Positions 1,801 to 22,391 of a stretch of 24,000 nucleotides of DNA are shown in pieces. Location of the stretch: positions 626,475-650,474 of the forward strand of contig NZ_CAKLDI010000001.1 in the NCBI RefSeq assembly GCF_921293875.1. The letters run 5' to 3'. Position numbers and translations under genes: made by a program. The notes beneath the pieces are model-generated. The model was given only the letters and a program-made list of their open reading frames with translations. It ran no database searches and was not told the DNA's origin. Position 1 is the stretch's first letter; the number at the start of each line of letters is the position of its first letter. Source of the stretch: Vibrio stylophorae (GTDB lineage: Bacteria; Pseudomonadota; Gammaproteobacteria; Enterobacterales; Vibrionaceae).

Positions 1801-2106
1801 TGCCTATCTTTTGTCAAATATCGCCAAACCCTCAATCAATCATCAAGGTGGTTGAACCGCGAGCAAGGCCCAAGGCGCTGATTGATCAATTCAGAGATTC
1901 CGCATGAATTTTGCCATTTATCACAAACTTTGGATGGAATAAAAACAAATACACAGGGGCTCAGATTTATTGAGGTGATTATGTTTTAATCAATATAAGG
2001 GGGGCTGCTTTGATTTGCTGATGGCCAATAGGTGGGACGATTTGGCTGTGAGCGTCATGGTAATGAGTCAAAGCGGCGCAAGGACGGCGTGACGCACACG
2101 ATTAGG

Positions 2107-6570: not shown

Positions 6571-6622
6571 GCGCTGAGAGCTAGACTAACAAAATGACAA
6601 ACCAGCAAGGGATGTGAGTTTT

Positions 6623-8282: not shown

Positions 8283-8750
8283 TTAAGGCATGGTGGCTAA
8301 AAAGCGAGTAAGGACATCCACAATCAATTGATGATCCGCTTGCTGTGGTAAACCTGAAACCGTAATACTTCCTACCACGCCAACATGACGAATGGTTAGG
8401 GGATAACTGCCACCATAGGGGGCGTAATCTCTCGCATCGACCAATGCAGCTTCTGCCATAGTTTTACCCTTGGCTTCATAGTAGCGACCCATATACCAGC
8501 TGCTGTGTTGCCAGCGCTGTACGACATTGCGTTTGCGCCGAATCCATTCGGCATTGTCTTGGGTGGTCGTTGGCATCGCATAATAAAACAGTGTTTGGCC
8601 GTTGAAGGTGATATCGATAGCGACATTGACACCGCGGTTCTCCGCTTCCTGCTTAATCGCTTCACCTAATTGCCAAGCGTAGGCATGGTCAAAGCGTTCA
8701 AAACTTAAGGCTTGCTCTTGTTCTTGAAGCGCTATAAGTAGTGGCGTCAT
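8283..8750 (-). CDS. UPF0303 / heme-degrading-domain (GlcG, DUF336-like) protein
   Basis: The 155-aa protein carries the family-like features I recall: ...AIDITFNGQTLFYYAMPTT...NAEWIRRKRNVV...YAPYGGSYPL...GSITVSGLPQQADHQL. A GAGGA Shine-Dalgarno lies 7 nt upstream of ATG 8750. It is 24 nt downstream of the oxidoreductase stop, so probably co-transcribed. Confidence 0.7.
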   Translation of the reverse strand: MTPLLIALQEQEQALSFERFDHAYAWQLGEAIKQEAENRGVNVAIDITFNGQTLFYYAMPTTTQDNAEWIRRKRNVVQRWQHSSWYMGRYYEAKGKTMAEAALVDARDYAPYGGSYPLTIRHVGVVGSITVSGLPQQADHQLIVDVLTRFLATMP

Positions 8751-8774: not shown

Positions 8775-9860
8775 TTAAGCGGGTAAAAAGGGTATCGTGC
8801 GTTTTTCTGCGGCGCTTTGATAGGCGGCTTCAATCACCCGCACCACATTGAGTGCTTCATCGGGCAGTACAGGAAGGGGGTGATTGTGATGAATCGCGGT
8901 GGCTAGCTGAGTGAAAAATTGTTCATACCCCCCTTGTTCAGTGGGGATGGTTCGGCGCTCTCCTTCGGCAGTGGTGAGTACGCCAAAATTAGCCGGATCA
9001 TCCAACCCCCAACCTGGGTGCTCTGGCCCTTGCTTCTCACGGAGTTGCGCTTCTTGGCTGTCCATACCGTATTTGATAAAGCTGGCTTGGTCGCCAAAAA
9101 CTTGAAAACGTGGCCCTTCGGTAGTGCTTAAACAATTGCCATGCAAAATTACATCGCAATCGGGGTAGTGCAGCTGCACATGGAAATGATCCACTGCTTG
9201 TGCACCGGGACGCTGGTTGCGTAACGTCGCGTTGATCAAGATCGGTAGGCCAAAGAGGGCTAAGGCTTGGTCAATTAAATGGGCACCCAAATCATATAAA
9301 ATACCGGCACCTGGTATATTTTGTTCACGCCAGCGCACCTTTACCTCTGGGCGATAGCGGTTGTAGCTGGAATAGAAGGTATGTACTTGGCCAAAGGTTT
9401 GTTCATTCATGAGGCGCTTGATGGTGAGAAAGTCGCCATCGAAACGACGGCTATGATAGACCGTTAATTTTCGATGGTGTGCTTTTGCAAGCGCAATTAA
9501 TGCTTTGCCATCTTCACTGTGATTGACGAATGGCTTTTCGATGACAACATGTTTGCCAGCATCCAGGGCTTGCTTGGCCATGGGGTAGTGCAAATTGTTG
9601 GGGGTGGCAATAATGACTAGTTCAATACTGTCATCGGTGAGTAAGTCGTTGAGGTTCGGGTATACCGTGACCTGTGGTAATTGTTGGTGTACTTTTTCCG
9701 CATCACTGGAGACCACTGCGACTAAATCTAGGGCTGTGACATAGTCAATGATCGGCGCTTGAAAACATTGCCCAGAAATACCAAAGCCAACTAATGCGGT
9801 ACGAATGGGGCGCGTTGATTGCTCTGAGGCTGCAGTTGACGGTGCGATTGCAGTGGACAT
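8775..9860 (-). CDS. Gfo/Idh/MocA family NAD(P)-dependent oxidoreductase
   Basis: It has an N-terminal Rossmann segment (IRTALVGFGISGQCF...), then ...VIIATPNNLHYPMAKQALDAGKHVVIEKP with the EKP motif typical of the family, and a C-terminal alpha/beta domain. ATG 9860 has GGAG 7 nt upstream. The tracked start at 9887 falls inside the ptsA terminator hairpin. Confidence 0.85.
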   Translation of the reverse strand: MSTAIAPSTAASEQSTRPIRTALVGFGISGQCFQAPIIDYVTALDLVAVVSSDAEKVHQQLPQVTVYPNLNDLLTDDSIELVIIATPNNLHYPMAKQALDAGKHVVIEKPFVNHSEDGKALIALAKAHHRKLTVYHSRRFDGDFLTIKRLMNEQTFGQVHTFYSSYNRYRPEVKVRWREQNIPGAGILYDLGAHLIDQALALFGLPILINATLRNQRPGAQAVDHFHVQLHYPDCDVILHGNCLSTTEGPRFQVFGDQASFIKYGMDSQEAQLREKQGPEHPGWGLDDPANFGVLTTAEGERRTIPTEQGGYEQFFTQLATAIHHNHPLPVLPDEALNVVRVIEAAYQSAAEKRTIPFLPA

Positions 9861-9879
9861 AAAGAGGCTCCATAAAATA

Positions 9880-9899
9880 GAGGCCACCAGTGTGGCCTC
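9880..9899 (-). terminator. Hairpin (terminator or attenuator) directly after ptsA
   Basis: gaggccac / gtggcctc forms an 8-bp stem with a 4-nt loop. On the minus strand it begins 6 nt after the ptsA stop and is followed by tattttat. The next gene's ATG (9860) lies only 19 nt beyond it, so read-through is probably needed. Confidence 0.55.
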
Positions 9900-9905
9900 A
9901 TTGTG

Positions 9906-12407
9906 TTAGATGATCTCAAGCTCTGCCTTTAGTATGGCTTCAATTTGGTGTGCTGATTCAGCATTCATCAAATGATCGCGAAATTCTGCGTGCATGATCT
10001 TACGTGCAAGGCGAGAAAATATCTTCATATGCTGGTCACCTGCGGCATGTTTGTTGAGGGTGAGCATGATCACAAATCTAGCTTCTTCATCGCCCCATTG
10101 AATCGGTTTAGCAAGACGGCAGACACTAATGGCTGATTGCTCAATATGTTCACTTTTGGTGTGTGGAATGGCAAAACCAAAGCCAAGACCGGTGGAGAAC
10201 ACGTCCTCACGAGCCCATAAATCATCGGCCAGTTTATTGGGATAGCGACAACGACCCGTTAAGTACAAGTTATCAGCTAGGGTTTTAATGACTTCCTCTT
10301 TGCTGCGCAAATCGCGATCTAAGCTAATGCAGTCAGCTGCAACCAGTGGCGCATCGGATTGGGTCATTCGGAACTGGGCCAGCAAATGTTCTACTTCAAG
10401 TGCGGTACGGCATTGCATCGCTTTGTTGAGCAGTTGGCGACATTCACGACTATCCAAACGGGCAATACGCTCTTTGGTTGCTGGAATGCTTGGCGCGCTC
10501 ATACTGATCTCATCCAAACCTAGACCAAGCAGTAGCGGTAATACTGAACCCTTGGCACCCAATTCACCACATAAACCAATCCATTTGCCATGGCGATGCA
10601 CTTCATTGACGACATGGTCCAAGGTGCGCAGAAAAGCAGGGTTCAAGCTGTTGTAGTTTTTGAGGACTTTGGCATTGTCACGATCCACCGCCATCAAGTA
10701 TTGGGTGAGGTCATTGGAGCCAATAGAGAAAAAGTCCACTTCTTCACAACATTGATCAATGATAAAGGCCACGGATGGTACTTCTAGCATGATCCCAAGC
10801 GGAATTTTTTCATCAAATGGAATATGTTCGCTGCGTAGCTCTTGACGAATTTCAGCCAATACATCCTTGACCCATAAAATCTCTTCCATAGAGGAGATCA
10901 TCGGAATCATGATCTTTAAGCGACCGTGGGCAGACGCACGAAGAATGGCTCGCAGTTGTGTTTTCACCATGGGTAAAAACTCTTGGTAGATGCGAATGGC
11001 GCGATAACCTAGGAATGGATTATTTTCTGCTGGAATATTGAGGTAATCCACTGGTTTGTCGCCACCAATATCGATGGTACGAATAATAATGGATTTGCCG
11101 TTTGCCGCTTCGATTGCTTGGCAGAAAATATTGTAGAGCTCATCCTCTTCTGGTGCATTGCTGCGATCCATATAGAGCATTTCGGTGCGAAATAGGCCAA
11201 TGGCCTCGGCGCCGTTGGTAAAAGCTGAGTCCGCTTCAACTGAGTGTGCAATGTTAGCTGCCACTTCTAGTTTTTTCCCATCTTGACTACAACCAGGCTC
11301 AAATCGATAAGCTTCTTGGCGTTTAGCAACTTGTTCGGCGACAAAACTTTCTTGTTGATAGTAACGCGAAAGCGGTTCGCTTATTTCGGTGGCGACAAAG
11401 CCAAGGGAACCGTCAATCAGAACCTCTTGATTAAGATAGGCTTGTAAGCTGTTGCCATCAATGCCCACCAACGTTGGAATAGCAAAGGAGCGCGCTAAGA
11501 TGACGGTGTGTGAGGTGCTACCGCCATGAGTCAGCAGCAATCCCTTGAGTTTGGATTTATCTAATTCAAGAAATTGGCTCGGGGTGAGGTCATCCGCCAT
11601 ACAGATGGAGGGGCCTGTCAGCTCGAGTTGGCTGGCAAAGCGCTGTTCGCCATAAATGGCTTGCAGGAGTTGGAAGCAGACATCGCGAATATCTAATTCA
11701 CGTTCACGTAGGTAAGTACTGGATGAATTTTTCATCATCTCGCCATAGTGTTTGGCGGTGGCGATAACCGCATCAGCGCAGCTTTTCCCGATGCTCAATT
11801 TACTGGCTAAGGTGCTGTTAAATTCACGGTCGGTAGCAATCGAAAGGTGGGCATTGAGCACCTCAAATTCGGTGTGCGTAGCTGCTTTGAGCTGAATATT
11901 AATGCTGGTCTTTAACGTCTCAAGTCCCTGCTTGAGTCGATCCTGTTCTTCATCCTGTGTGGTCGCAGCAATGCTTTCAATATTGTCAAAATTAATGGCA
12001 CCAATGTGCAACAGTTGGCCTTGACCAAACCCAGCAGAGACGGCACGGCCACGAATGAGTTTTGGATTTAAGTTAGCGAGATTACGTGGTAGGGCAAGAT
12101 GTTCATCCTCTTGTTCCGTGGTTTCAAGGGGGGCGTCACATGCAGGTAGATCTTTTTCAATAAATTCGCGAAGTGCAGCAAAGGCGGTTTCTTCATCATG
12201 ACCGTCAATGGTTAATTGACACGGGTCATCAAGTAGGGTGTCGGTACCAATTAAAGAGAGCACGCTTTTAGCATTGGCGCTGAGTTTGGTTCGGCCATTG
12301 GTCCAGATGATTTCAGAATCAAAACGGTTACACACGGCTTCAATATGGCTGGCTGGGCGAGCGTGGATGCCATTGGGTAGTTCACAACGAAAGGATAAAG
12401 TTTTCAT
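9906..12407 (-). CDS. ptsA: Multiphosphoryl transfer protein: fused HPr - Enzyme I - EIIA(fructose/mannitol type)
   Basis: The N-terminal HPr-like domain carries NGIHARPASHI. The EI core carries GGSTSHTVILARSFAIPTLVG (phospho-His), NPFLGYRAIR and FFSIGSNDLTQYLMAVDRDN. The C-terminal EIIA type-2 domain carries GFGFAIPHTKSEHI. The domain order and ~830-aa size match my recollection of E. coli PtsA (FrwA). AAGGA lies 9 nt upstream of the ATG. Confidence 0.92.
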   Translation of the reverse strand: MKTLSFRCELPNGIHARPASHIEAVCNRFDSEIIWTNGRTKLSANAKSVLSLIGTDTLLDDPCQLTIDGHDEETAFAALREFIEKDLPACDAPLETTEQEDEHLALPRNLANLNPKLIRGRAVSAGFGQGQLLHIGAINFDNIESIAATTQDEEQDRLKQGLETLKTSINIQLKAATHTEFEVLNAHLSIATDREFNSTLASKLSIGKSCADAVIATAKHYGEMMKNSSSTYLRERELDIRDVCFQLLQAIYGEQRFASQLELTGPSICMADDLTPSQFLELDKSKLKGLLLTHGGSTSHTVILARSFAIPTLVGIDGNSLQAYLNQEVLIDGSLGFVATEISEPLSRYYQQESFVAEQVAKRQEAYRFEPGCSQDGKKLEVAANIAHSVEADSAFTNGAEAIGLFRTEMLYMDRSNAPEEDELYNIFCQAIEAANGKSIIIRTIDIGGDKPVDYLNIPAENNPFLGYRAIRIYQEFLPMVKTQLRAILRASAHGRLKIMIPMISSMEEILWVKDVLAEIRQELRSEHIPFDEKIPLGIMLEVPSVAFIIDQCCEEVDFFSIGSNDLTQYLMAVDRDNAKVLKNYNSLNPAFLRTLDHVVNEVHRHGKWIGLCGELGAKGSVLPLLLGLGLDEISMSAPSIPATKERIARLDSRECRQLLNKAMQCRTALEVEHLLAQFRMTQSDAPLVAADCISLDRDLRSKEEVIKTLADNLYLTGRCRYPNKLADDLWAREDVFSTGLGFGFAIPHTKSEHIEQSAISVCRLAKPIQWGDEEARFVIMLTLNKHAAGDQHMKIFSRLARKIMHAEFRDHLMNAESAHQIEAILKAELEII

Positions 12408-12432
12408 CTCAGCATGTCCTTGAATTTAATTT

Positions 12433-12458
12433 TTTGAGGGCTGAATCATTACCTCAAA
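12433..12458. promoter_or_regulatory. Inverted repeat in the ptsA 5' region (candidate operator or 5'-UTR hairpin)
   Basis: tttgagg (12433..12439) and cctcaaa (12452..12458) are exact reverse complements separated by 12 nt. The spacer region gctgaatcattacc (12440..12453) is a near match to the Cra/FruR consensus as I remember it (RSTGAAWCSNTHHW). Confidence 0.3.
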
Positions 12459-12533
12459 CAATATCAAATTCGTCTGTCCATGCTATGGGATAAAAAATCG
12501 AAACACTGGATATTTGTTATATTTTGGGTTTTG

Positions 12534-12549
12534 TGTGAGTGCGCTCAAA
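12534..12549. promoter_or_regulatory. CRP-like site in the divergent ptsA / frwC control region
   Basis: TGTGA-gtgcgc-TCAAA compared with the consensus TGTGA-N6-TCACA gives 9 of 10 half-site positions. Confidence 0.35.
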
Positions 12550-12771
12550 AATACTGCTTTAAATGTGACTCTGAGCATGTTTTTCATTGTTGGTTGATAT
12601 GGGGTTGTTTTGTAATACATTGATTTAATTTGTTTTATGTCGATTTATTCACGTTTATTTATCTATTGGTTAAAAAGTGTGGTGTGGATCTGCTTTTTAG
12701 TTGGTTCATACAAAAATCCAGTTAAAAGTAGTTTTATCCTCTATTTGATTAGCATATTTACTCACTATATT

Positions 12772-12817
12772 AGCTGCATCAGAACGCAGTTAGAAACTGC
12801 GCACTGGCTGTTTTTTT
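12772..12817 (+). terminator. Leader hairpin plus T7 run about 55 nt upstream of frwC (candidate attenuator)
   Basis: The core stem is cgcagtt (12785..12791) / aactgcg (12795..12801). It can be extended by cag/ctg and agc/gct pairs, and is followed immediately by ttttttt (12811..12817). Confidence 0.35.
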
Positions 12818-12872
12818 ACTTTATCAACCAAGTTCAAAAATAACGCTTACTTACCCTGAAGGAGAAGTCACC

Positions 12873-13943
12873 ATGAATGACTTGATCTCAATACTCAAAA
12901 ATACAAGACAACACTTGATGACTGGTGTGTCACATATGATTCCGTTCGTCGTTGCGGGGGGTATTTTGCTTGCCACATCGGTGATGCTTTCCGGTAAGGG
13001 CGCTGTCCCTGCAGAGGGCTCATGGCTCCATGATTTGTTCTTTATTGGGGTTGCAGGCTTTACCTTGATGGTACCTATTCTTGCTGCTTACATCGGTTAT
13101 TCCATTGCCGACCGTTCGGCACTTGCTCCTGCGGCCATTGGCGCGTTCATTGGCGCCAATATGTATAACACAGGTTTCTTTGGTGCCATTTTTGCTGGTT
13201 TGTTGGGCGGTATTGTCGTTTTTTACCTAAAGAAAATTAAAGTTCCATCCTTTGCCCGCTCTGTGATGCCTATTTTTGTGATTCCAATTATCGGTACTTT
13301 TATCACTGCAGGTGCCATGGTTTGGTTGATTGGTGAGCCGATTGGTGCCGCAACGGACGCTCTAACTGGCTTTTTGAGAGGCATGCAAGACTCAAGCATT
13401 GTGGTACTTGCAACTGTGATGGGTTTGATGATCGCCTTTGATATGGGTGGTCCGGTCAATAAAGTGGCCTATGCATTTGTGATTATGTGTGTAGGTGAAG
13501 GGATTTATAACGTTGCAGGTATCTCTGCGGTAGCTGTGGCTGTGCCTTCTGTCGGTATGGGCTTGGCGACCTTCTTGAATAAAAAACTGTATGACGTGAG
13601 TGAGCAAGAAGCGGGCCGCGCCTCAATTTTGATGGGCACCATGGGAATCACAGAAGGTGCAATTCCATTTGCCGCTGCCGATCCACTTCGCGTGATCCCA
13701 TCAATCATGATTGGTACAGCGGTGGGCTCTGTGACTGCGGCACTGCTCGGCGTGAAATGTTATGCCGCTTGGGGTGGTCTGATTGTCCTCCCTGTCGTTG
13801 AAGGGCGCTTTGGTTTCTTAATTGCATTGGCGGTTGGTTCAATCGTGACTGCGCTGCTAGTGAACCTATTGAAGTCGCGCCGTACTGTCATTGACACCAA
13901 TGCTGACTCAGATGATTTAGACATGGATATCTCCATTGGCTGA
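12873..13943 (+). CDS. frwC: PTS fructose-family EIIC permease
   Basis: The 356-aa polytopic membrane protein begins ...HLMTGVSHMIPFVVAGGILLA, typical of fructose-type EIIC. A strong AAGGAG Shine-Dalgarno precedes the start. Its position matches E. coli frwC. Confidence 0.9.
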   Translation: MNDLISILKNTRQHLMTGVSHMIPFVVAGGILLATSVMLSGKGAVPAEGSWLHDLFFIGVAGFTLMVPILAAYIGYSIADRSALAPAAIGAFIGANMYNTGFFGAIFAGLLGGIVVFYLKKIKVPSFARSVMPIFVIPIIGTFITAGAMVWLIGEPIGAATDALTGFLRGMQDSSIVVLATVMGLMIAFDMGGPVNKVAYAFVIMCVGEGIYNVAGISAVAVAVPSVGMGLATFLNKKLYDVSEQEAGRASILMGTMGITEGAIPFAAADPLRVIPSIMIGTAVGSVTAALLGVKCYAAWGGLIVLPVVEGRFGFLIALAVGSIVTALLVNLLKSRRTVIDTNADSDDLDMDISIG

Positions 13944-14005
13944 TGGATAGCCACACCGTTACTTACGAATACATTGAATTTGAATTGCAAATAGAGGAAT
14001 TCGCT

Positions 14006-14326
14006 ATGACTAGCATTATCGCAGTAACCGCATGTCCATCAGGCGTAGCGCACACATATATGGCTGCCGAGGCCATTGAATCAGCAGCAAAAGCAAAAGG
14101 CTGGAGTTGCATGGTTGAAACCCAAGGGTCAATCGGTATTGAAAATGAGTTAAGTGCCGAGGTGATTGCCAGCGCAGATGTGGTGATTCTGACTAAAGAC
14201 ATCGACATCAAAAACACCGAGCGTTTTGAAGGTAAAACTATTATCCGCATCGGCATCAGTGACGCGGTAAAACGCGCGGCGTTGGTGATGGATAAGATTG
14301 AGGCACACCTCGCTTCAGTCGCCTAA
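14006..14326 (+). CDS. frwB: PTS fructose-family EIIB
   Basis: MTSIIAVTACPSGVAHTYMAAEAIE carries the phospho-Cys motif of EIIB(Fru). GAGGA lies upstream of ATG 14006. The tracked ORF start at 13943 adds an unlikely 21-aa extension. The product is 106 aa. Confidence 0.88.
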   Translation: MTSIIAVTACPSGVAHTYMAAEAIESAAKAKGWSCMVETQGSIGIENELSAEVIASADVVILTKDIDIKNTERFEGKTIIRIGISDAVKRAALVMDKIEAHLASVA

Positions 14327-14335
14327 TGAGTATGG

Positions 14336-14370
14336 CCAGCATCTGTGTTGTCGCCACTCACAGATGCTGG
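14336..14370 (+). other. 12-bp-stem hairpin between frwB and the GRE gene
   Basis: ccagcatctgtg (14336..14347) is the exact reverse complement of cacagatgctgg (14359..14370), with an 11-nt loop. No clear U-run follows (ttgatggg). Confidence 0.5.
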
Positions 14371-14547
14371 TTGATGGGTTCCTGGCACCCAGATGAATGA
14401 CTAGCCAGGATCACTTGCCCTGCATTGTGACCTGATGTGATTGCCACGCAGCGAGACACAATATCAGTGCAGCGCAAGTCATTCTTAAATCAGTGCTTAT
14501 CGCACATTAACAATAATAAATCAGCCTGAATCAAGATGGAGTCAATC

Positions 14548-16848
14548 ATGAGTACCCCTCGCATCGAACGACTAAAAACGGCACTGTTTGCTGATGGCCG
14601 TGAAATTTCTCTAGAGCGCGCGCTGCTCTATACCGAAAGCCATCAACAAACTGAAGGTGAACATACCCTGATTCGTCGCGCTAAAGCGACGGCGCATGTG
14701 ATGGACAGGGTTGCCATTGCTATTCGTGATGACGAGTTGATCGCAGGGAATCGCACGGTGAAACCGCGAGCGGGGATCATCTCACCAGAGATGGATCCTT
14801 ACTGGATTGCAAAAGAGCTGGATATTTTCGCAACTCGACCACAAGACCGTTTCACCATCAGCGACGAGGACAAGGCTGTTTATCGTGAGCAGCTGTTGCC
14901 GTATTGGACGGCGCGCTCGATGAAAGACTTTATCAATGGTCAAATGCCTGAAAACGTGAAAGAAGCGGCAGGGCAAAAAATATTTTCGGTTAATCAAACC
15001 GATAAAGGCCAAGGGCATATTATTATCGATTTTGAACGATTGTTGGGGCGGGGTTTGGGCGCGTTGCGTCAAGAGATGCAGCGTTTGAGTTGCGAGCAAC
15101 CTGACAATGAATTTTTCCAAGCGGTGCTGATTTTACTGGATGCCTCAGTGCGCCATATTCAGCGTTATGAAGCGCTGGCCCGCGACATGGCGGCCGCCTG
15201 CGCAGATAGTACCCGCGCCGCTGAGTTGACGCGTATTGCGGATATTTCGTCGCATATTGCTGAGCACAAACCGCAAGACTTCTACCAAGCCTGCCAGCTG
15301 TTTTGGTACATGAACATCATTTTGCAATATGAGTCTAACGCTAGCTCTTTGTCTTTGGGGCGTTTTGACCAATATATGATGCCTTTTTACCAAGCCTCAT
15401 TGGCGCAAGGGGAAAGCCCAGCTGCGCTCAAAGAGTTACTAGAAAGCTTATGGGTGAAAACCAATGACATCGTGCTGCTGCGCTCTTCTTCTAGCGCCAA
15501 GTTCTTTGCTGGTTTCCCAACGGGTTACACCATTTTGCTTGGCGGCTTGACGGACAATGGCCGTAGTGCGGTGAATCCATTGTCGACCTTATGTTTAGAT
15601 GCCTATCAAAGTATTCAGCTGCCACAACCCAATCTTGGCGTGCGGGTGAATGAGTTCATTGATCGCGAGTTCTTAATGAAAACTGCCGAAACCATTCGTT
15701 TGGGTACGGGGATCCCGCAAATTTTCAATGACGAAGTGGTGGTTCCCGCCTTTTTAAATCGCGGCGTGAGTCTTGAAGATGCGCGTGATTACTCTGTGGT
15801 GGGGTGTGTTGAACTATCGATTCCGGGTAAAACCTACGGTTTGCATGATATTGCAATGTTTAACTTGTTGAAGGTGATGGAGTTGGTGTTGCTGCGTAAT
15901 AAGAACAACCCCGATGTAACCTTTGAAAGTTTGCTCCAAGAGATCCGCAGCGATATTTGTCACTACGTTAAGCTGATGGTGGAAGGCTCTAATATTTGTG
16001 ATGTTGGCCATCGTGATTGGGCTCCAGTGCCGCTGCTGTCGTCGTTGATTAGCGATTGCGTGAAAAATGGCAAAGATATTACCGATGGTGGCGCCCGTTA
16101 TAACTTTTCGGGCGTACAAGGGATTGGCATTGCCAATCTGTCTGACTCACTTCACGCTCTGAAACGCTTTGTCTTTGAAGAAAAACGGATGACTTTTGCT
16201 GAGTTGATTGCGGTTCTGGAAAGCAATTTTAGTGGTGAAGACCACGATAAAGTGCGTGCACGCTTAATCAATCGTTATGAAAAATATGGTAACGATATTG
16301 ATGAAGTGGATGTGCTTGGCAGCGATCTACTGCGTCTCTTTTGTAAAGAGGTAGAAATCTACCAAAATCCGCGTGGCGGCGTATTTACTCCAGGATCTTA
16401 TACCGTGTCTGCACACGTACCTCTGGGCGCTGTGGTTGGTGCTACACCAGATGGGCGTCATGCCGGGGAGCAGCTTGCCGATGGCGGTTTATCGCCGATG
16501 GTTGGAAAGGATCAACAAGGGCCGACAGCAGTACTGAAATCGGTGAGTAAGCTGGATAACTACCTACTTTCTAATGGTAGTTTGTTGAACGTAAAATTTA
16601 CCCCATCGACCCTTGAGGGGCCGCAGGGACTAACCAAGCTGGGAGACTTTCTTCGCGCCTTTATGAAGCTCAAATTGCAGCATGTACAGTTTAATGTGCT
16701 CAATGCTGAAACTCTGAAAAAAGCGCAGGAAAAACCAGAGGACTACGCCGGCCTTGTCGTCCGTGTGGCGGGTTACAGCGCCTTCTTTGTTGAGCTTTCT
16801 AAAGAGATTCAGGACGACATTATTCACCGCACGGCGCATCAGCTGTAA
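14548..16848 (+). CDS. pflD: Glycyl radical enzyme, PflD-type (eliminase/lyase class, not a true pyruvate formate-lyase)
   Basis: The C-terminal glycyl-radical motif is VVRVAGYSAFFVEL (Gly codon 16771..16773). The thiyl loop is VVGCVELSIPG, a single Cys with Glu two residues later, as in the dehydratase/lyase GREs, rather than the CC pair of PFL. The size, the N-terminus RIERLKTALF and the activase immediately downstream match E. coli PflD as I recall it. GGAG lies 6 nt before ATG 14548. Confidence 0.92.
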   Translation: MSTPRIERLKTALFADGREISLERALLYTESHQQTEGEHTLIRRAKATAHVMDRVAIAIRDDELIAGNRTVKPRAGIISPEMDPYWIAKELDIFATRPQDRFTISDEDKAVYREQLLPYWTARSMKDFINGQMPENVKEAAGQKIFSVNQTDKGQGHIIIDFERLLGRGLGALRQEMQRLSCEQPDNEFFQAVLILLDASVRHIQRYEALARDMAAACADSTRAAELTRIADISSHIAEHKPQDFYQACQLFWYMNIILQYESNASSLSLGRFDQYMMPFYQASLAQGESPAALKELLESLWVKTNDIVLLRSSSSAKFFAGFPTGYTILLGGLTDNGRSAVNPLSTLCLDAYQSIQLPQPNLGVRVNEFIDREFLMKTAETIRLGTGIPQIFNDEVVVPAFLNRGVSLEDARDYSVVGCVELSIPGKTYGLHDIAMFNLLKVMELVLLRNKNNPDVTFESLLQEIRSDICHYVKLMVEGSNICDVGHRDWAPVPLLSSLISDCVKNGKDITDGGARYNFSGVQGIGIANLSDSLHALKRFVFEEKRMTFAELIAVLESNFSGEDHDKVRARLINRYEKYGNDIDEVDVLGSDLLRLFCKEVEIYQNPRGGVFTPGSYTVSAHVPLGAVVGATPDGRHAGEQLADGGLSPMVGKDQQGPTAVLKSVSKLDNYLLSNGSLLNVKFTPSTLEGPQGLTKLGDFLRAFMKLKLQHVQFNVLNAETLKKAQEKPEDYAGLVVRVAGYSAFFVELSKEIQDDIIHRTAHQL

Positions 16849-16856
16849 GGAATAGC

Positions 16857-17714
16857 ATGATGTGTGATGGTCAAACTGAGGCATTTGGGCGCATTTTTAA
16901 CATTCAGCGCTACTCACTGAATGATGGCGAGGGAATTCGCACTGTGGTGTTTTTCAAGGGCTGCCCATTGCGCTGCCCTTGGTGCGCTAATCCTGAATCC
17001 CGCTCTTTGCATCAGGTACATGTGCGTCGTTTGTCGAAATGTTTGCACTGTGATGTTTGCCAAGAGGATGTTGTGGAGTGCCCGAGTGGCGCTTATGAGC
17101 AAGTTGGTCAAGATATGACGCTGGCTGAAGTGCTTACTGAAATTGCCAAAGATGACTTGTTTTACCAAACCTCTGGCGGCGGGGTGACGTTATCAGGCGG
17201 TGAAGTACTTAGCCAAGCGCCTTTTGCCATTGTCCTGCTCGAAGCATTAAAAGCACGTGGTTATCGCACCGCGATTGAAACGTCGGGCCATGGTAACGCT
17301 CAGCAGCTGCTACAAATTGGTGCACTGTGCGATGAAGTGCTGTTTGATTTCAAAATAATGGATGCGGCGCGCGCCAAAACTGTGATTGGCTCGAATGTCG
17401 AACGGATACTCGAGAACTTTCAAAGCTTGATGGCGCAAAGTAAAACCACAGGCACCAAGGTGATCCCCCGATTACCGCTGATTCCGGGGTATACCTTAGA
17501 TATCGTCAATGTCGATAAGGTGCTGAATTTTCTTTGTCCCTTTGCACTTGACCAGATTCATTTACTGCCATTTCACCAATTTGGTGCCAGCAAATATGAG
17601 CTGTTGGGAATGGCATACCAACTTAAAGATGTCGATGTGCCAACCCATGCCGAGGTCAATGCGATTCGCGCACATGTTGAAGCACAGGGCTACACAGTCA
17701 CAATTGGAGGCTAA
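16857..17714 (+). CDS. pflC: Glycyl-radical enzyme activating enzyme (radical SAM)
   Basis: It has the CPLRCPWC (CX3CX2C) radical-SAM cluster motif and the GGVTLSGGE SAM-binding motif. A 4-Cys insert (CLHCDVCQEDVVEC) follows the first cluster. It starts 8 nt after the GRE stop. Confidence 0.92.
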   Translation: MMCDGQTEAFGRIFNIQRYSLNDGEGIRTVVFFKGCPLRCPWCANPESRSLHQVHVRRLSKCLHCDVCQEDVVECPSGAYEQVGQDMTLAEVLTEIAKDDLFYQTSGGGVTLSGGEVLSQAPFAIVLLEALKARGYRTAIETSGHGNAQQLLQIGALCDEVLFDFKIMDAARAKTVIGSNVERILENFQSLMAQSKTTGTKVIPRLPLIPGYTLDIVNVDKVLNFLCPFALDQIHLLPFHQFGASKYELLGMAYQLKDVDVPTHAEVNAIRAHVEAQGYTVTIGG

Positions 17715-17715
17715 G

Positions 17716-18576
17716 GTGAAAAAACGCATTTTAATAACAGGGGCCAATGGTTTTTTTGGGACGCGCTTTATCAATCGTTATCGCCATGAGTTTGAGATCA
17801 CCGCGACTGATGTGCCTGATTTAGATATTACAGATGTCGCCATGGTCAACGAGACCTTTGCCAAGGTGCGCCCCGACTATGTGATTCACGCAGCGGCCAT
17901 TGCCGTCACCGATTTTTGTAACGCCAACCCAGATGTGGCCTATCAAGTGAATGTACAAGGGGCGATCAACGTTGCCACGGCTTGCAAAGCGGTGGGTGCC
18001 AAACTGGTCTTTATTTCAACCGAGCAGGTATTTAACGGTAATCCTGAAGCTGGTCCTTACGATGAAACTATGATCCCTGTGCCAGATACGGTTTACGGCC
18101 AAAACAAGCTGGAAGCGGAAGCCAAACTGTCTGAGATTATCGATGAGCTTTGGGTGCTGCGTTTTACTTGGCTGTTTGGCTTGCCAGAGCGTAACACCAG
18201 CATTAATCCCAATGTGTTGTGGAATGCGTTGCAAGCCTTGGTCAAAGGTAAGCGCATGGCTGAACGGCGCAATGAGTTTCGCGGTTTGACCTATGTGCAT
18301 GAACTTATCGACCAGTTCCCGAAAATTTTTGATATCCCTTATGGTCTTTACCATACCGGTGCACATAACGACGCTAGCCGTTACGACATTGCCGCGCACA
18401 TTATTGCTGAAATGGGATTATCGCTAGAGCAGCATGAATTGCTAGAAGCGGTAGATGCACCAAAAACGCGTGATGTGCGGCTTAACACTCAAAAATTAGC
18501 CGATGTTGGTGTGGTCTTTAGTGACAGTCGCACTGCCATTAGCCAATGTTTAAACGAATTTAGTTTTCGCCTATAG
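17716..18576 (+). CDS. RmlD-like extended SDR (NAD(P)-dependent sugar reductase/epimerase family)
   Basis: GTG 17716 lies 1 nt after the pflC stop, with GGAGG 5 nt upstream. The translation gives KKRILITGANGFFG (GxxGxxG), LDITD..RPDYVIHAAA, STEQVF and YGQNK (YxxxK), a layout typical of the dTDP-4-dehydrorhamnose reductase (RmlD) family. The tracked ORF start (17542) overlaps pflC out of frame and is not credible. Confidence 0.85.
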   Translation: MKKRILITGANGFFGTRFINRYRHEFEITATDVPDLDITDVAMVNETFAKVRPDYVIHAAAIAVTDFCNANPDVAYQVNVQGAINVATACKAVGAKLVFISTEQVFNGNPEAGPYDETMIPVPDTVYGQNKLEAEAKLSEIIDELWVLRFTWLFGLPERNTSINPNVLWNALQALVKGKRMAERRNEFRGLTYVHELIDQFPKIFDIPYGLYHTGAHNDASRYDIAAHIIAEMGLSLEQHELLEAVDAPKTRDVRLNTQKLADVGVVFSDSRTAISQCLNEFSFRL

Positions 18577-18633
18577 GGCAGCAAATGAAAACGCCGCGCA
18601 GTAGCGCTGCGGGTCTGAAGTAGGAGTGACCTC

Positions 18634-19311
18634 ATGATTTATATGTTAGATACCGCGAATTTGGATGCAATTCAAAAGGCTGTTGACCTTTATCCAATTG
18701 AAGGTGTAACCACCAACCCCACAATTATTGCGCGTGAAAATCGTCCATTTAAGGAGGTGATCACCAGTATTCGTGCCATTATCGGTCCTGATCGCATGCT
18801 CCATGCGCAGGTGCTCGGTAAAACTGCGGAAGTGATGCTCGAAGAAGCGCGAGCGATGCGCCAAATTGATGCCGATATCATAATCAAAGTGCCAGTGACT
18901 CCACAGGGCATTAAAGCAATGAAACTGATTCACCAAGAGGGGATTCGTATCACTGCCACCGCGATTTTAACGCCGCAGCAAGCGCTTATGGCGGCTATGG
19001 CTGGCGCTGAATTTTTAGCGCCTTATGTCAATCGATTGGATAACATCTGTGGTGATGGCACTCAGGTGGTAGCTGAAATTGCCCATCTGATTGATATTTA
19101 TGGGTTAAATGCTAAGGTGCTAGCGGCATCGTTTAAAAATGTACAGCAAGTGCATGAAGTGGCAAAGGCGGGCGCACAATCCGTGACTATTGGCCCAGAT
19201 GTGTTTGATTTGCTTCTGGTACATCCGCTTACTGATTCTGGCGTAGCGGGCTTTGTTAGCGACTGGGATAGTGTATATGGCGCCGATAAAACGGTACTTG
19301 ATGTGATTTAG
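18634..19311 (+). CDS. fsa: Fructose-6-phosphate aldolase type class I aldolase (transaldolase subfamily 5)
   Basis: It carries MIYMLDTANLD..GVTTNPTII, IIKVPVT (Schiff-base Lys) and LAPYVNRLD. The Tyr in APYVNR is the Fsa-type residue; transaldolases have Phe there. The protein is about 220 aa. AGGAG lies 8 nt upstream. Confidence 0.88.
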   Translation: MIYMLDTANLDAIQKAVDLYPIEGVTTNPTIIARENRPFKEVITSIRAIIGPDRMLHAQVLGKTAEVMLEEARAMRQIDADIIIKVPVTPQGIKAMKLIHQEGIRITATAILTPQQALMAAMAGAEFLAPYVNRLDNICGDGTQVVAEIAHLIDIYGLNAKVLAASFKNVQQVHEVAKAGAQSVTIGPDVFDLLLVHPLTDSGVAGFVSDWDSVYGADKTVLDVI

Positions 19312-19427: not shown

Positions 19428-19763
19428 ATGAAAATTGTTGGAGTCACGGCTTGTATAAGTGGTGTTGCTCATACCTATATGGCTGCTGAGCTGCTAGAAA
19501 AAACAGCACTGAAAATGGGTTGTAGTGCGATCATTGAAACGCAGGGCGCACTGGGTAGTGAAAATACCCTGACAGACAGCCAAATTAGTGAAGCGGATGT
19601 GGCGTTAATTGTGGCTGATATTAATATTGAGGGCGAAGCACGTTTTGCGCAATCACGCGTGTTGATGTTGTCTATTTCTCAGTTTTTAAAAGATCCGCAA
19701 GCAGCGATTGTTGCGGCTGAAAAATTAAAAAAAGCCCCACCGCAAACACGAATGATCCTTTAG
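19428..19763 (+). CDS. frwD: Second PTS fructose-family EIIB
   Basis: MKIVGVTACISGVAHTYMAAELLE retains the EIIB phospho-Cys motif. It is 111 aa and is the last gene of the cluster, as frwD is in E. coli. Confidence 0.85.
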   Translation: MKIVGVTACISGVAHTYMAAELLEKTALKMGCSAIIETQGALGSENTLTDSQISEADVALIVADINIEGEARFAQSRVLMLSISQFLKDPQAAIVAAEKLKKAPPQTRMIL

Positions 19764-19789: not shown

Positions 19790-19815
19790 AAAAACCAGCT
19801 GTGATGCTGGTTTTT
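19790..19815. terminator. Bidirectional rho-independent terminator between convergent frwD and the AraC-type gene
   Basis: aaaaaccagc (19790..19799) is the exact reverse complement of gctggttttt (19806..19815), with loop tgtgat. It has an A-tract on the 5' side and a T-tract on the 3' side (continuing tgttttt). Confidence 0.75.
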
Positions 19816-19898: not shown

Positions 19899-20771
19899 CT
19901 ATACCTCTGCTTCTAGGTTACTGCGATATTGCACACGGTATTGCGAGGGAGTGCGAGCGGTTTGTTGACGAAAAACTCGGCAGAAATAGTTACTGTCACT
20001 AAATCCGCAACGGTGGGCCACTTCTTTTACTTTCATGTCATATTCTTTGAGTAAAAATTTGGCGCGCTCAAGGCGCACATGGTTTAAGTACTCATTAAAT
20101 TTATGCTTGCTTTCTTTTTGAAATAGCTGTGACAGGTAGTTGGGTGACACATAAAAGTGCTCGGCAACGGACTCACGTGAGAGTGGCTCATGATAATGGT
20201 GTTCAAGGTAATCGCGAACGGTATCAAATAGCGTTTTACTTTTAGAGTAGGTGGTCGCTGGGTGGTGGATGAGGTACAAAATATGGCTGCATAGTGTGCG
20301 AATGAGTAACCGCTGTGTTTGTTGATCACCCATTTGCCATGTCATCTCTTCGAGGGCTTGAAGAACAAAGGTTCCGGTTCTTGGGCCACGTCGCGCCACA
20401 CTTTCCTTAATGGAAGCATCAAATTGCTCTCCATCCCAGCTGAGCAAGCTCATGCCGAAATTTTGCTTACCTACTAGAACGGATAAGGTGACGACGGGTT
20501 GTGTCCAATTGGGTTTGTTCCAGCTTTCCGCTGGGACATACAGCACATCACCAGCCTGCATGATATGGCGTTCTTCCATCCCCATTTTGCTGCCCATTTC
20601 CATTTCAAGCTCGCCAATAAGTACCATTTCGACACGCGTGAAATGTACTTGATAAGCCATGGGTGGTGGTGTTGGCAAGTGGCCGGCATGCAGCACTTGA
20701 CCAATTGTGCTTTGGTGTGAAGCGTAATGCTCAAGGGCATCAATGAGGTAGGTGCGATCCACAATAGGCAT
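19899..20771 (-). CDS. AraC/XylS family transcriptional regulator (cupin sensor domain plus C-terminal HTH)
   Basis: The C-terminus (VAEHFYVSPNYLSQLFQKE...VKEVAHRCGFSDSNYFCRVFRQQTARTPSQYR) is the canonical AraC dual HTH. The N-terminal part (AGDVLYVPAESW) is cupin-like. The tracked start (20813) is a TTG. The first ATG is 20771, but its Shine-Dalgarno is poor, so the start is uncertain. Its position matches E. coli yijO. Confidence 0.85.
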   Translation of the reverse strand: MPIVDRTYLIDALEHYASHQSTIGQVLHAGHLPTPPPMAYQVHFTRVEMVLIGELEMEMGSKMGMEERHIMQAGDVLYVPAESWNKPNWTQPVVTLSVLVGKQNFGMSLLSWDGEQFDASIKESVARRGPRTGTFVLQALEEMTWQMGDQQTQRLLIRTLCSHILYLIHHPATTYSKSKTLFDTVRDYLEHHYHEPLSRESVAEHFYVSPNYLSQLFQKESKHKFNEYLNHVRLERAKFLLKEYDMKVKEVAHRCGFSDSNYFCRVFRQQTARTPSQYRVQYRSNLEAEV

Positions 20772-21110
20772 CCTTGGAAAGTGAATAAATCTACTACAAA
20801 TACATGACACCAATCGGTCATCATGGAGGGATTTTATCTCTAATTGCTTCCGTTAAAATCACAGTGTTGTGGATTTATCATGCGCATCACATTTTTGCGT
20901 TGATCGCACAAATTTCCAGTCAATCGTAGAAAAATCAAATATTGAAATTTTCTCAGCCACGTAGCCTGAAGGTGTGGTGCGTCAGAAATAATAAGGCAAA
21001 ACGCCATGGCGTTGCACTGCACTTTAGGCTGTTGCTGCTGGTGTGAATGTGCCTTTCGGACTTGGCATCAAGCAGTCAAAACGTATTGATATTGTTGCTG
21101 AGATCAAACC

Positions 21111-22391
21111 ATGCCAAATTATCATGTTTATCCCCATAACTTTTATCCGCTGCGAAATGTAATTCAAAATTACCCTTGGGGTAGTACCACTGCAATGCAC
21201 GAGCTGTTTTCTATTGATAACCCGACACATCAGCCACAAGCTGAATTATGGATGGGGACTCACCCTAATGGTTGTTCTCGTGTTCAAATCGGTGGGCAAG
21301 AGCATTCACTTGCAGCTCTAATTGCACAAAATAGCGCTGGTATTTTATCGCCACAAACCCTGGAGGATTTTGGTGAATTACCATTTCTATTTAAGATATT
21401 ATCGGCAGAAAAAGCACTTTCAGTGCAGGTGCACCCGAGTAAAGGTGAGGCGCAAAAAGGGTATGCATTGGAAGAGGGGAAAGGCATCGCGCCGCAAGCT
21501 GCCCATCGCAATTATAAAGATCCCAATCATAAACCTGAGTTGGTTTATGCGCTGACTACCTACCAAGCGATGAATGGTTTTCGCAATCTACAGCAAATCG
21601 CAGCGCTATTTGCGGCTATTGATTTTTCAGTACCGTCATGTCAGGCCATCGAAAAGTTAGTAATAGCTTACCAACAGCAGTGCGATTCTGCAGGGCTACA
21701 AACTTTCTTTTCTGCATTGTTGTCACTGCAGGGCGCAGATAAAGATGCGGCACTGGATGCATTATTAGCTCATGCTTTGCGAGAGCATCGACTGATGGAG
21801 TCGTCGCTTACGGAAAATGCCCAGCAATTACCAGATGCGCTAAACCAGACCGATATCTTTGAATTGATTTTAACGTTGGCGCAGCAATATCCGGGAGATA
21901 TCGGTTTATTTTCGCCGCTACTGCTTAATGTGGTGACCCTTGCGCCAGGCCAAGCTATGTACTTAGATGCGCGAACGCCTCACGCTTATATTAAAGGTAC
22001 TGGCTTAGAAATTATGGCGAATTCAGATAATGTGCTGCGTGCGGGATTAACCAATAAATTTATTGATGTGCCAGAGTTGGTGGCTTGTACGCAATTTGAA
22101 GAAAAACCCATGCGCACGATGTTGTTGACGCCGCACAAAGAGGGCGAGGTGTGGCATTATGACATTCCAGTCCCTGATTTTGGCTTTACGGTGTATCAAA
22201 GTGCGGTGCAAACATTGGTGCATTCACAGAGTGCGGAAATTATTTTAGCTCTGGATGACACCGTACAACTGACTCATGCTAATGGCGAAACCTTAACTTT
22301 ACAAAAAGGTGAATCTGCTTTTATTCCGGCCTACGCCTATTACTACAGTGTGACTAGCTCAGGACGGATTGCGCGAGTGTTTAATCAATAA
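21111..22391 (+). CDS. manA: Mannose-6-phosphate isomerase, class I
   Basis: It carries VIQNYPWGS, QPQAELWMGTHP, GELPFLFKILSAEKALSVQVHP, NYKDPNHKPELVYAL, PHAYIKG and EIMANSDNVLRAGLT, the conserved type-I PMI blocks including the zinc-ligand regions. It is about 35 aa longer than E. coli ManA as I recall it. Confidence 0.9.
   Translation: MPNYHVYPHNFYPLRNVIQNYPWGSTTAMHELFSIDNPTHQPQAELWMGTHPNGCSRVQIGGQEHSLAALIAQNSAGILSPQTLEDFGELPFLFKILSAEKALSVQVHPSKGEAQKGYALEEGKGIAPQAAHRNYKDPNHKPELVYALTTYQAMNGFRNLQQIAALFAAIDFSVPSCQAIEKLVIAYQQQCDSAGLQTFFSALLSLQGADKDAALDALLAHALREHRLMESSLTENAQQLPDALNQTDIFELILTLAQQYPGDIGLFSPLLLNVVTLAPGQAMYLDARTPHAYIKGTGLEIMANSDNVLRAGLTNKFIDVPELVACTQFEEKPMRTMLLTPHKEGEVWHYDIPVPDFGFTVYQSAVQTLVHSQSAEIILALDDTVQLTHANGETLTLQKGESAFIPAYAYYYSVTSSGRIARVFNQ

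Follow-up and report, generated by a model that had tools for sequence, protein, structure and literature searches.

The window analysed here is a stretch of 24,000 nucleotides from Vibrio stylophorae (contig NZ_CAKLDI010000001.1, positions 626,475 to 650,474 of the forward strand), and it carries, within an operon built around the glycyl radical enzyme (GRE) PflD, a gene for an extended short-chain dehydrogenase/reductase (hereafter, the SDR) with the fold of dTDP-4-dehydrorhamnose reductase (RmlD). It is highly likely that this protein is a dedicated oxidoreductase of the PflD pathway, and not an RmlD. As for the step that it takes, our tentative proposal is that it feeds PflD, acting as a ketoreductase that might convert 1,5-anhydrofructose-6-phosphate (AF6P) into 1,5-anhydromannitol-6-phosphate (AM6P). 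Both the pathway and the fold are known; what appears to be new is the association of the SDR with PflD, the signature of its subfamily and the proposed class of substrate. A literature search retrieved no published description of a GRE-linked SDR, and the supplementary gene-cluster figures of Ma et al. 2024 might show the gene.

In general terms, the anhydroglycolysis pathway (YbiW/PflD), by which anaerobic bacteria ferment 1,5-anhydro-sugars and which two summaries credit to Ma et al. 2024, relies on the phosphotransferase system (PTS) for the initial phosphorylation, on PflD to open the ring of AM6P and yield 1-deoxyfructose-6-phosphate, and on FsaA/B to cleave the latter into glyceraldehyde-3-phosphate and hydroxyacetone; the components named are the PTS, PflD/YbiW, FsaA/B and the hydroxyacetone step, and the SDR is not among them (PMC13450708, a GRE review of 2026; PMC12441222, a review of 2025). 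PTS, GRE, aldolase and GldA are described as making up the whole pathway, and about half of the sampled PflD clusters add a highly conserved oxidoreductase to them, suggesting that one step of this recently discovered pathway has been missed.

A companion gene of PflD clusters

The SDR gene is the fifth of a seven-gene operon (frwC-frwB-pflD-pflC-SDR-fsa-frwD), and its reading frame, read directly on the sequence, extends on the + strand from a GTG (17716-17718) to a TAG (18574-18576), encoding 286 amino acids. The stop codon of pflC, which encodes the GRE activase, is a TAA at 17712-17714, so that one spacer base (G, 17715) separates both genes. The elements that define the gene and the end of the operon are the following:

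17716..18576, + strand: the SDR, of the GRE-linked RmlD-fold subfamily, 286 amino acids (motifs, Pfam, model, alignment)
17706..17710, + strand: Shine-Dalgarno sequence GGAGG for the SDR, within the last pflC codons, 5 nt 5' of the GTG at 17716
19790..19815, + strand: intrinsic-terminator-like hairpin closing the operon (10-bp stem and T run, after the frwD-like IIB gene)

An earlier note on this DNA had described the GTG one nucleotide past the pflC stop, the GGAGG ahead of it and the aldolase gene behind it, and all of this was confirmed on the sequence, the FSA-type aldolase gene beginning at 18634. The open reading frame listing offers an alternative start upstream in the same frame (TTG, 17542), but the 21 aligned homologues (21/21) begin at an MKK that matches the GTG at 17716, which is therefore taken as the true start. 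No terminator-like site was found between pflC, the SDR gene and fsa, the hairpin at 19790-19815 being the sole convincing one in the operon. A regulatory hairpin or attenuator in the gap between the SDR gene and fsa (18577-18633) was considered and rejected, since its fold is no better than that of shuffled sequences (z = -0.15) and is not terminator-like on the + strand. The tight junction between the activase and SDR genes is conserved (by tblastn, gaps of 3-9 nt in proteobacterial loci and of about 25-70 nt in most Firmicutes-type loci), which disfavours a chance juxtaposition of the two.

The backbone of the E. coli anhydroglycolysis locus (ptsA / frwC-frwB-pflD-pflC-...-frwD / yijO) is orthologous to and syntenic with that of the window. 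The complete K-12 locus reads gldA-fsaB-ptsA / frwC-frwB-pflD-pflC-frwD / yijO and has no SDR gene, as the earlier note had supposed, and none of 5,426 complete E. coli genomes matched the DNA of the SDR gene. The window differs in that a pair formed by the SDR gene and fsa stands between pflC and frwD, and in that a Gfo/Idh/MocA gene and an HbpS-like gene, both missing at that place in E. coli, follow ptsA where E. coli has fsaB-gldA. Furthermore, gldA, which E. coli pairs with fsaB, was not found in the window by tblastn.

Is this arrangement a peculiarity of one Vibrio? Loci were annotated by tblastn with the proteins of the window and E. coli reference proteins, and a locus needed at least 3.5 kb upstream to enter the linkage count. 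A search of genome contigs with the single SDR protein returned six close relatives and one unrelated match, and 80 loci were obtained when metagenome contigs were scanned with an alignment (individual loci are cited below by their L numbers). A PflD-family GRE was present in 18 of the 22 loci whose SDR homologue reaches at least 42% identity, and in none of the 27 in which the identity is lower. The linked loci belong to Vibrionaceae, to Pseudovibrio and to Firmicutes-type clusters (Clostridium and a Bacillus). The operon is identical around the close relatives from Vibrio, Photobacterium and Pseudovibrio (an alphaproteobacterium), and a Clostridium SDR with 60% identity lies in a cluster with the order HbpS-like / GRE-activase-SDR-FSA / Gfo-IIB-IIC-IIA-regulator. 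The earlier note had proposed a co-occurrence check and had allowed for a chance insertion; the check yields a conserved operon member across phyla. The SDR gene also stays with GRE-activase or PTS genes where the aldolase gene is elsewhere or absent (L022, L023, L039, L041 and the Bacillus locus L101, in which it lies between IIC and IIA).

The four GRE-less loci among those 22 are L036 and L037 (near-duplicates with the activase only), L033 and L030, an orphan. In L033 (6919-10864) an SDR 57% identical to the window protein is accompanied by a Gfo/Idh/MocA protein, a DeoR regulator and a YbiV-like HAD sugar phosphatase, and this locus is either a decayed cluster or one in which Gfo, SDR and phosphatase could work as an independent module.

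The association was also sampled from the opposite side, starting from a clostridial PflD and inspecting seven genomes, in addition to E. coli:

Clostridium ganghwense: SDR present, GRE-activase-Gfo-SDR-FSA
Bacillus sp. HMF5848: SDR present, Gfo / HbpS-DeoR-IIC-SDR-IIA-IIB-GRE-activase-FSA-HPr-EI
Haloimpatiens: SDR present, GRE-activase-SDR-FSA
Firmicutes metagenome-assembled genome: SDR present, Gfo-DeoR-HAD / GRE-activase-SDR-FSA
C. estertheticum: SDR absent, GRE-activase-FSA
Serratia fonticola: SDR absent, E. coli-like arrangement
Clostridium sp. cel8: SDR absent, GRE-activase-FSA-Gfo and a second GRE

With E. coli counted, half of the PflD clusters sampled in this way (4/8) contain the SDR, which is an optional but frequent module of them.

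Some loci hold two GREs side by side (among them L102, 15838-18243), in which a PflD type is paired with a YbiW type or with a third type that is 39-43% identical to PflD; in L029, a GMC-family oxidoreductase and a ROK protein are encoded between the two GREs.

An RmlD fold with a signature of its own

The SDR matches Pfam PF04321 (RmlD_sub_bind) over its full length (4.7e-47, residues 4-282) and Pfam Epimerase (3.7e-22), all its Pfam matches being to extended-SDR families. It has GANGFFG (residues 9-15) as the GxxGxxG motif, YGQNK (127-131) as the YxxxK motif and the two-domain architecture of an extended SDR. Its AlphaFold2 model (pLDDT 89.6) superposes on RmlD structures with TM scores of 0.83-0.88. 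The RmlD-family layout that the earlier note had read from these two motifs and from STEQVF (residues 101-106) is borne out by the full-length match and the fold. The catalytic triad T102/Y127/K131 and the Gly-rich motif are invariant across 22 aligned GRE-linked SDRs; the triad of the S. enterica RmlD is T104/Y128/K132 (PMC4832382).

Sharing the fold of RmlD is, nonetheless, not the same as being one. The equivalog cutoffs for RmlD are missed by a wide distance (148 bits versus 224.05 for TIGR01214, and 70.1 versus 308 for NF007440, the enterobacterial model), and a comparison with five canonical RmlDs (E. coli RfbD, GacA and those of S. pneumoniae, B. anthracis and C. acetobutylicum, four of them from PDB alignments), built on conservation and not on a ligand-bound structure, showed that the canonical motifs are replaced: STDYVF by STEQVFNGN, DQxGxPT by NEFRGLTY, [ST]W[YF][DE] by SRYD and RPxNS by RDVRL. 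The residues contacting dTDP were sought in PMC4832382 and PMC13210114, the text of both of which names the catalytic triad only. Judging from the architecture of the extended-SDR family, the replaced segments would line the cleft for the sugar and the phosphates. The GRE-linked SDRs have additional invariant arginines (R159, R189, R222 and R255), keep R252, which aligns with the Arg of the canonical RPxNS, and have lost the conserved Trp; the loop after the RxxW strand is 6-7 residues longer than in canonical RmlDs and bears PE[RK]. As both the equivalog cutoffs and the canonical motifs are missed, an intact dTDP-sugar site is unlikely. The profile and structure checks that the earlier note had called for result, in short, in an RmlD fold outside the RmlD equivalog.

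The gene context leads in the same direction as the motifs. A tblastn search of the window with E. coli RfbA, RfbB, RfbC and GldA detected no RfbA, RfbC or GldA, and the SDR is all that RfbB and RfbD match in it, weakly so (identities of 22% and 27%). None of rmlA, rmlB and rmlC appears in the 30 informative loci of the group with at least 42% identity, which extends beyond the window what the earlier note had stated about the lack of a rhamnose-biosynthesis context. Compared with RmlD (EC 1.1.1.133; S. enterica 1KBZ, S. pyogenes GacA 4WPG, S. pneumoniae 8G22), the SDR shares the two-domain fold (TM 0.83-0.87), the GxxGxxG motif and the T/S-Y-K triad, and it differs in sequence (21-28% identity in the fold-search alignments), in the replaced motifs, in the longer loop and in the neighbouring genes.

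An alignment of the window SDR with 70 homologues from the retrieved loci, Trichomonas and Bacteroidales proteins, E. coli RfbD and the other four canonical RmlDs resolves three motif states, of which the third is the GRE-linked group (the last line gives the motifs of the window protein itself):

Canonical RmlDs: STDYVF, YGx[ST]K, R[TS][AS]W and a short loop, DQxGxPT, [ST]W[YF][DE], RPxNS
Trichomonas/Bacteroidales clade: SSDQ[IV]Y, YGxHK, a longer loop, [NH]E[YF]R, YN[YF]G, RN[IL]xM
Window SDR and every homologue with at least 42% identity: S[TS]EQ[VI]FNGN, YGxNK, RFTW[LM]FGxPE[RK] and a longer loop, NE[FY]RG[LM]TY, YHxG[AS], [SN]RY[DE], RD[VIA]RL
Window SDR: STEQVFNGN, YGQNK, RFTWLFGLPER and a longer loop, NEFRGLTY, YHTG, SRY, RDVRL

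The subfamily is defined here by S[TS]EQ, YGxNK, the PE[RK] loop, NE[FY]RG[LM]T, YH, [SN]RY and RDxRL, together with a PflD-type GRE as neighbour, and the window SDR belongs to it, with a signature score of 6/6 and a place in a PflD operon. It is a small group: a HMMER scan of 1.84 billion representative proteins gave 33,356 relatives at E <= 1e-3 and 120 at E <= 1e-30, and among the 150 nearest clusters at 50% identity the GRE-linked signature was found in about 16, most of the others having the SSDQ of the Trichomonas/Bacteroidales clade and the canonical RmlDs lying further out. The public label "dTDP-4-dehydrorhamnose reductase" on many proteins of the subfamily is very probably wrong, and the signature motifs permit their re-annotation.

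The closest solved structure (9GPI/9GSC, "RmlD from Trichomonas vaginalis"; E 2.9e-48 by sequence, TM 0.86-0.88, 32% identity) belongs to the second of these states, and is very probably TVAG_357160, a protein from which no activity was obtained and which is 46% identical to Bacteroides and Prevotella proteins (PMC9741107), an affinity that was also seen in the present searches. Its clade resembles the SDR in the longer loop, in the Q that follows the catalytic S/T-[DE], and in that DQxG gives way to an NE[FY]R-like motif. It differs in SSDQ[IV]Y, YGxHK, YN[YF]G and RN[IL]xM, and in that it lacks the arginines of SRY and RDxRL; furthermore, no GRE and no rml gene adjoins its Bacteroidales members in the two bacterial loci that were examined. 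9GPI was consequently dropped as a guide to the function of the SDR, as it represents a different clade and its activity was not demonstrated in PMC9741107. No relevant paper was found in a literature search for PDB 9GPI/9GSC, and their RmlD annotation may deserve scrutiny, since the protein belongs to a large non-canonical, mostly Bacteroidales clade without canonical RmlD motifs.

Another relative, MAT2B (methionine adenosyltransferase 2 beta), has in common with the SDR an RmlD fold that works outside nucleotide-sugar metabolism, so this fold can be re-purposed. MAT2B is a regulatory subunit, whereas the SDR has an invariant triad and invariant residues in the cleft segments.

Candidate reactions and their rivals

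In the proposal favoured here, the SDR is very probably a catalytically competent NAD(P)-dependent oxidoreductase, from a small subfamily that left nucleotide-sugar biosynthesis and became a permanent accessory enzyme in PflD operons. The PTS being the sole transporter in the cluster, the substrate in the cytoplasm should be a 6-phosphate. By analogy with RmlD, the SDR probably reduces the ketone of a pyranose ring; this could be that of AF6P or of a close keto-anhydrohexitol-6-phosphate, and the product would be the epimer with an axial hydroxyl, AM6P, which is the form accepted by PflD. The ketone might come directly from imported 1,5-anhydrofructose or, alternatively, be formed by the neighbouring Gfo/Idh/MocA protein from 1,5-anhydroglucitol-6-phosphate, in which case the two enzymes would carry out a C2 epimerisation, a plausible scheme that the earlier note had also put forward. 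AF6P can be mapped onto the substrate of RmlD, in a sense that its C2 ketone would lie para to C5 (CH2-O-P) as the C4 ketone of dTDP-4-keto-rhamnose lies para to C1 (O-P), with the ring oxygen and the 3-OH of both superposing, and this mapping supports the reduction of AF6P by the SDR. On the anhydrofructose route, the SDR step would use the single NADH coming from GAPDH, which would explain a cluster without gldA. In its widest form, which we put forward as a conjecture that could well fail, an RmlD fold was re-tooled from nucleotide sugars to a sugar 6-phosphate, and the step from AF6P to AM6P is a new entry to radical anhydroglycolysis that would allow the fermentation of 1,5-anhydrofructose when alone and would turn the glucitol into the mannitol epimer together with the Gfo protein. 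A full-text literature search for the 6-phosphates of anhydrofructose and anhydromannitol found no paper mentioning anhydrofructose-6-phosphate.

The characterised 1,5-anhydrofructose reductases belong to the Gfo/Idh/MocA or the aldo-keto reductase families, the Sinorhizobium enzyme (EC 1.1.1.292) being of the Gfo/Idh/MocA kind and the mammalian one being EC 1.1.1.263. They act on the free sugar, whereas the substrate proposed for the SDR is the 6-phosphate, and, the families being unrelated, any function shared with the SDR would be analogous and not homologous. The chemistry proposed is the same as theirs: the known reductases, including that from Sinorhizobium, use NAD(P)H to reduce the C2 ketone of anhydrofructose and form anhydromannitol (PMC12441222).

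The Gfo/Idh/MocA gene is a frequent companion, since it is found together with the SDR gene in the window and in L016, L003/5/6, L008, L022, L023, L025, L028/29, L033, L098, L101 and L104. In L016 it also follows ptsA, as it does in L003, L005 and L006, where the end of the locus truncates it; L018/19, L103 and L044 lack it. With an identity of 25-30% only, the proteins of Vibrio and of clostridia are not clearly orthologous, which suggests that the Gfo proteins of Vibrio and of Firmicutes-type clusters were recruited independently. It is possible that the Gfo protein of the window is the redox partner of the SDR. Its best structural relative is B. subtilis YvaA (PDB 3gfg), also known as IolW, an inosose/scyllo-inositol oxidoreductase acting on an equatorial ring hydroxyl.

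Different roles have to be weighed against this proposal. The SDR could act downstream of the aldolase, reducing hydroxyacetone to 1,2-propanediol, or another small carbonyl, and regenerating NAD+, so as to replace or supplement GldA, which was also the alternative offered by the earlier note. This is unlikely, even if several observations fit it: in most loci fsa comes right after the SDR gene, at a distance of 17-140 nt, and the two seem to travel together, standing between pflC and frwD, which are neighbours in E. coli; the window has no gldA, whereas E. coli couples it with fsaB; and there are extended SDRs with small substrates, L-threonine 3-dehydrogenase being among the weak PDB matches. 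Nevertheless, the clusters of L002, L006 and L044 encode, besides the SDR, a GldA homologue (53-55% identity to that of E. coli), and an iron-containing alcohol dehydrogenase is encoded upstream of the SDR cluster in L103, so that the SDR is not simply a stand-in for GldA, and that form of the alternative is weakened. In L044, GldA (1094-2280) occupies, between ptsA and the HbpS-like gene, the slot of the Gfo gene in the window, and in L006 Gfo, SDR and GldA are found together. The SDR gene is also kept where no FSA gene is nearby (L022, L041 and L023), and a full two-domain architecture with invariant residues in the segments of the RmlD sugar-phosphate cleft would be needless for a three-carbon substrate. 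Improbable to a greater extent is a single-enzyme C2 epimerase that, by means of a tightly bound NAD+, would interconvert 1,5-anhydroglucitol-6-phosphate and AM6P through a transient 2-keto intermediate, and would let an organism with PflD only use both sugars. The window does have a PflD-type and no YbiW-type GRE, the triad is intact, and extended SDRs include epimerases with bound NAD+ such as GalE and CDP-tyvelose 2-epimerase; however, the closest structures and sequences are RmlD-type reductases and MAT2B and not epimerases, the activity would be redundant in L018/19 and L029, where GREs of both the PflD and the YbiW types accompany the SDR, and the frequent Gfo/Idh/MocA neighbour would be left without a role.

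There is also little to recommend a non-catalytic, NAD(P)-binding partner in the manner of MAT2B that tunes the GRE or its activase according to the redox state, and we regard it as very improbable: MAT2B is among the best matches in sequence and structure and the SDR gene is translationally coupled to that of the activase, but the T-Y-K triad and many residues of the cleft segments are invariant from Vibrio to Clostridium, a pattern proper of enzymes, and the two genes are apart in L041 and in the Bacillus locus L101. A genuine dTDP-4-dehydrorhamnose reductase, situated in the operon by happenstance, is what the top Pfam and NCBIfam matches (RmlD models), the fold and several public annotations of homologues would name; it is scarcely credible given the distance to both equivalog cutoffs, the replaced motifs, the loci devoid of rmlA/B/C (rmlA and rmlC being absent from the window as well) and an association with PflD clusters that holds across phyla.

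The proposal that the SDR feeds PflD as a ketoreductase has, in turn, several points to answer. L030 and L033 encode an SDR with the full signature and no GRE within 10 kb. The PflD clusters of E. coli, Serratia and C. estertheticum do without the SDR, which makes it dispensable for the core pathway. In L018/L019 (~11940-14370) and L029 (1736-4174 and 6607-9069) a PflD-type and a YbiW-type GRE both lie beside the SDR, and an epimerisation module would be partly redundant there because both types are present. The adjacency of SDR and aldolase genes would also fit a role after the aldolase, and the Gfo protein of the cluster is an alternative candidate for the reduction of anhydrofructose, given that the Sinorhizobium reductase is a Gfo/Idh/MocA enzyme and not an SDR.

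If the SDR did reduce a keto-anhydrohexitol phosphate, the range of substrates of the pathway would extend to 1,5-anhydrofructose and/or the glucitol epimer, and 1,5-anhydrofructose, which alpha-1,4-glucan lyase forms as its primary product, could be fermented by marine and sediment anaerobes. With the Gfo protein, a single GRE (PflD) would suffice where E. coli needs both YbiW and PflD. It would also illustrate clearly that an enzyme with the RmlD fold can have a sugar phosphate, instead of a nucleotide sugar, as its substrate. The work of Ma et al. 2024, in JACS, was reportedly motivated by routes from starch through anhydrofructose to 1,2-propanediol, in which the SDR could be of use.

The rest of the cluster and its surroundings

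The window unites in one locus what is taken here as a PflD-type anhydroglycolysis cluster (a PflD GRE with its activase, a Frw-type PTS and an FSA aldolase), and profile cutoffs are passed for PflD, PflC, FrwC, FrwB and FSA. The genes that accompany the SDR are the following:

12873..13943, + strand: FrwC-like PTS IIC (PRK10478, 575 bits, cutoff 426; 65% identity to E. coli FrwC)
13943..14326, + strand: FrwB-like PTS IIB (PRK10474, 175 bits, cutoff 135; 78% identity to E. coli FrwB)
14536..16848, + strand: PflD-type glycyl radical enzyme (PRK09983, 1502 bits, cutoff 1109)
16857..17714, + strand: PflC-type glycyl radical enzyme activase (NCBIfam PRK10076, 419 bits, cutoff 326; 56% identity to E. 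coli PflC)
18634..19311, + strand: FSA/TalC-type fructose-6-phosphate aldolase (NCBIfam PRK12656, 225 bits, cutoff 214)
19428..19763, + strand: FrwD-like PTS IIB, final gene of the operon (55% identity to E. coli FrwD; NF007747, 125.6 bits, under the cutoff of 153)
19899..20813, - strand: AraC-family regulator, YijO-like (55% identity to E. coli YijO)
9906..12407, - strand: PtsA/FrwA multiphosphoryl transfer protein (HPr-EI-IIA), divergent from the operon (65% identity to E. coli PtsA)
8775..9887, - strand: Gfo/Idh/MocA oxidoreductase, YdgJ/YvaA-like, downstream of ptsA (PRK11579, 352 bits, cutoff 330; PDB 3gfg YvaA, 4.7e-93)
8283..8750, - strand: HbpS-like "heme-degrading domain" protein (PF03928), 155 amino acids (NF002696, 199 bits, cutoff 146)

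The GRE of the window is of the PflD and not of the YbiW type, with 77% identity to E. coli PflD versus 37% to YbiW, and with 1345 bits against PDB 8yjo (PflD) and 474 bits against 8id7 (YbiW); by homology, it would be a 1,5-anhydromannitol-6-phosphate C-O lyase. The aldolase is 39-41% identical to E. coli FsaA/FsaB, versus 55-78% for the remaining frw/pfl backbone; it is expected to act on 1-deoxyfructose-6-phosphate, and, as far as the sequences tell, the SDR-fsa pair looks like a two-gene module that was acquired separately. The YijO-like regulator is kept at the same position in L001-L006, L015 and L016.

The ATG of the FrwB-like frame overlaps the frwC stop, and the alignment with E. coli FrwB covers 14006-14323 only (MTSIIAV...), so translation may in fact begin at the internal ATG (14006) and leave out the first 21 codons. 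The HbpS-like gene recurs beside PflD-type GRE clusters from Vibrio-like ones to those of Clostridium and Bacillus (L008, L016, L018, L022, L044 and L101). Just past the AraC-family regulator, the window encodes a class I mannose-6-phosphate isomerase (21111-22391, + strand), and genes for such an isomerase also lie beside the SDR cluster in L017 (~6920) and directly after the SDR gene in L041 (10879-11868). L041 has a GatZ-like protein and a PfkB kinase instead of the FSA aldolase, which may reflect a variant downstream route. Upstream of the cluster, judging from size and the appearance of the sequence, there are an apparent membrane-fusion protein and a 1054-amino-acid RND-type pump (2032-6430, + strand), followed by a probable glycerol kinase of 521 amino acids (6614-8179, + strand).

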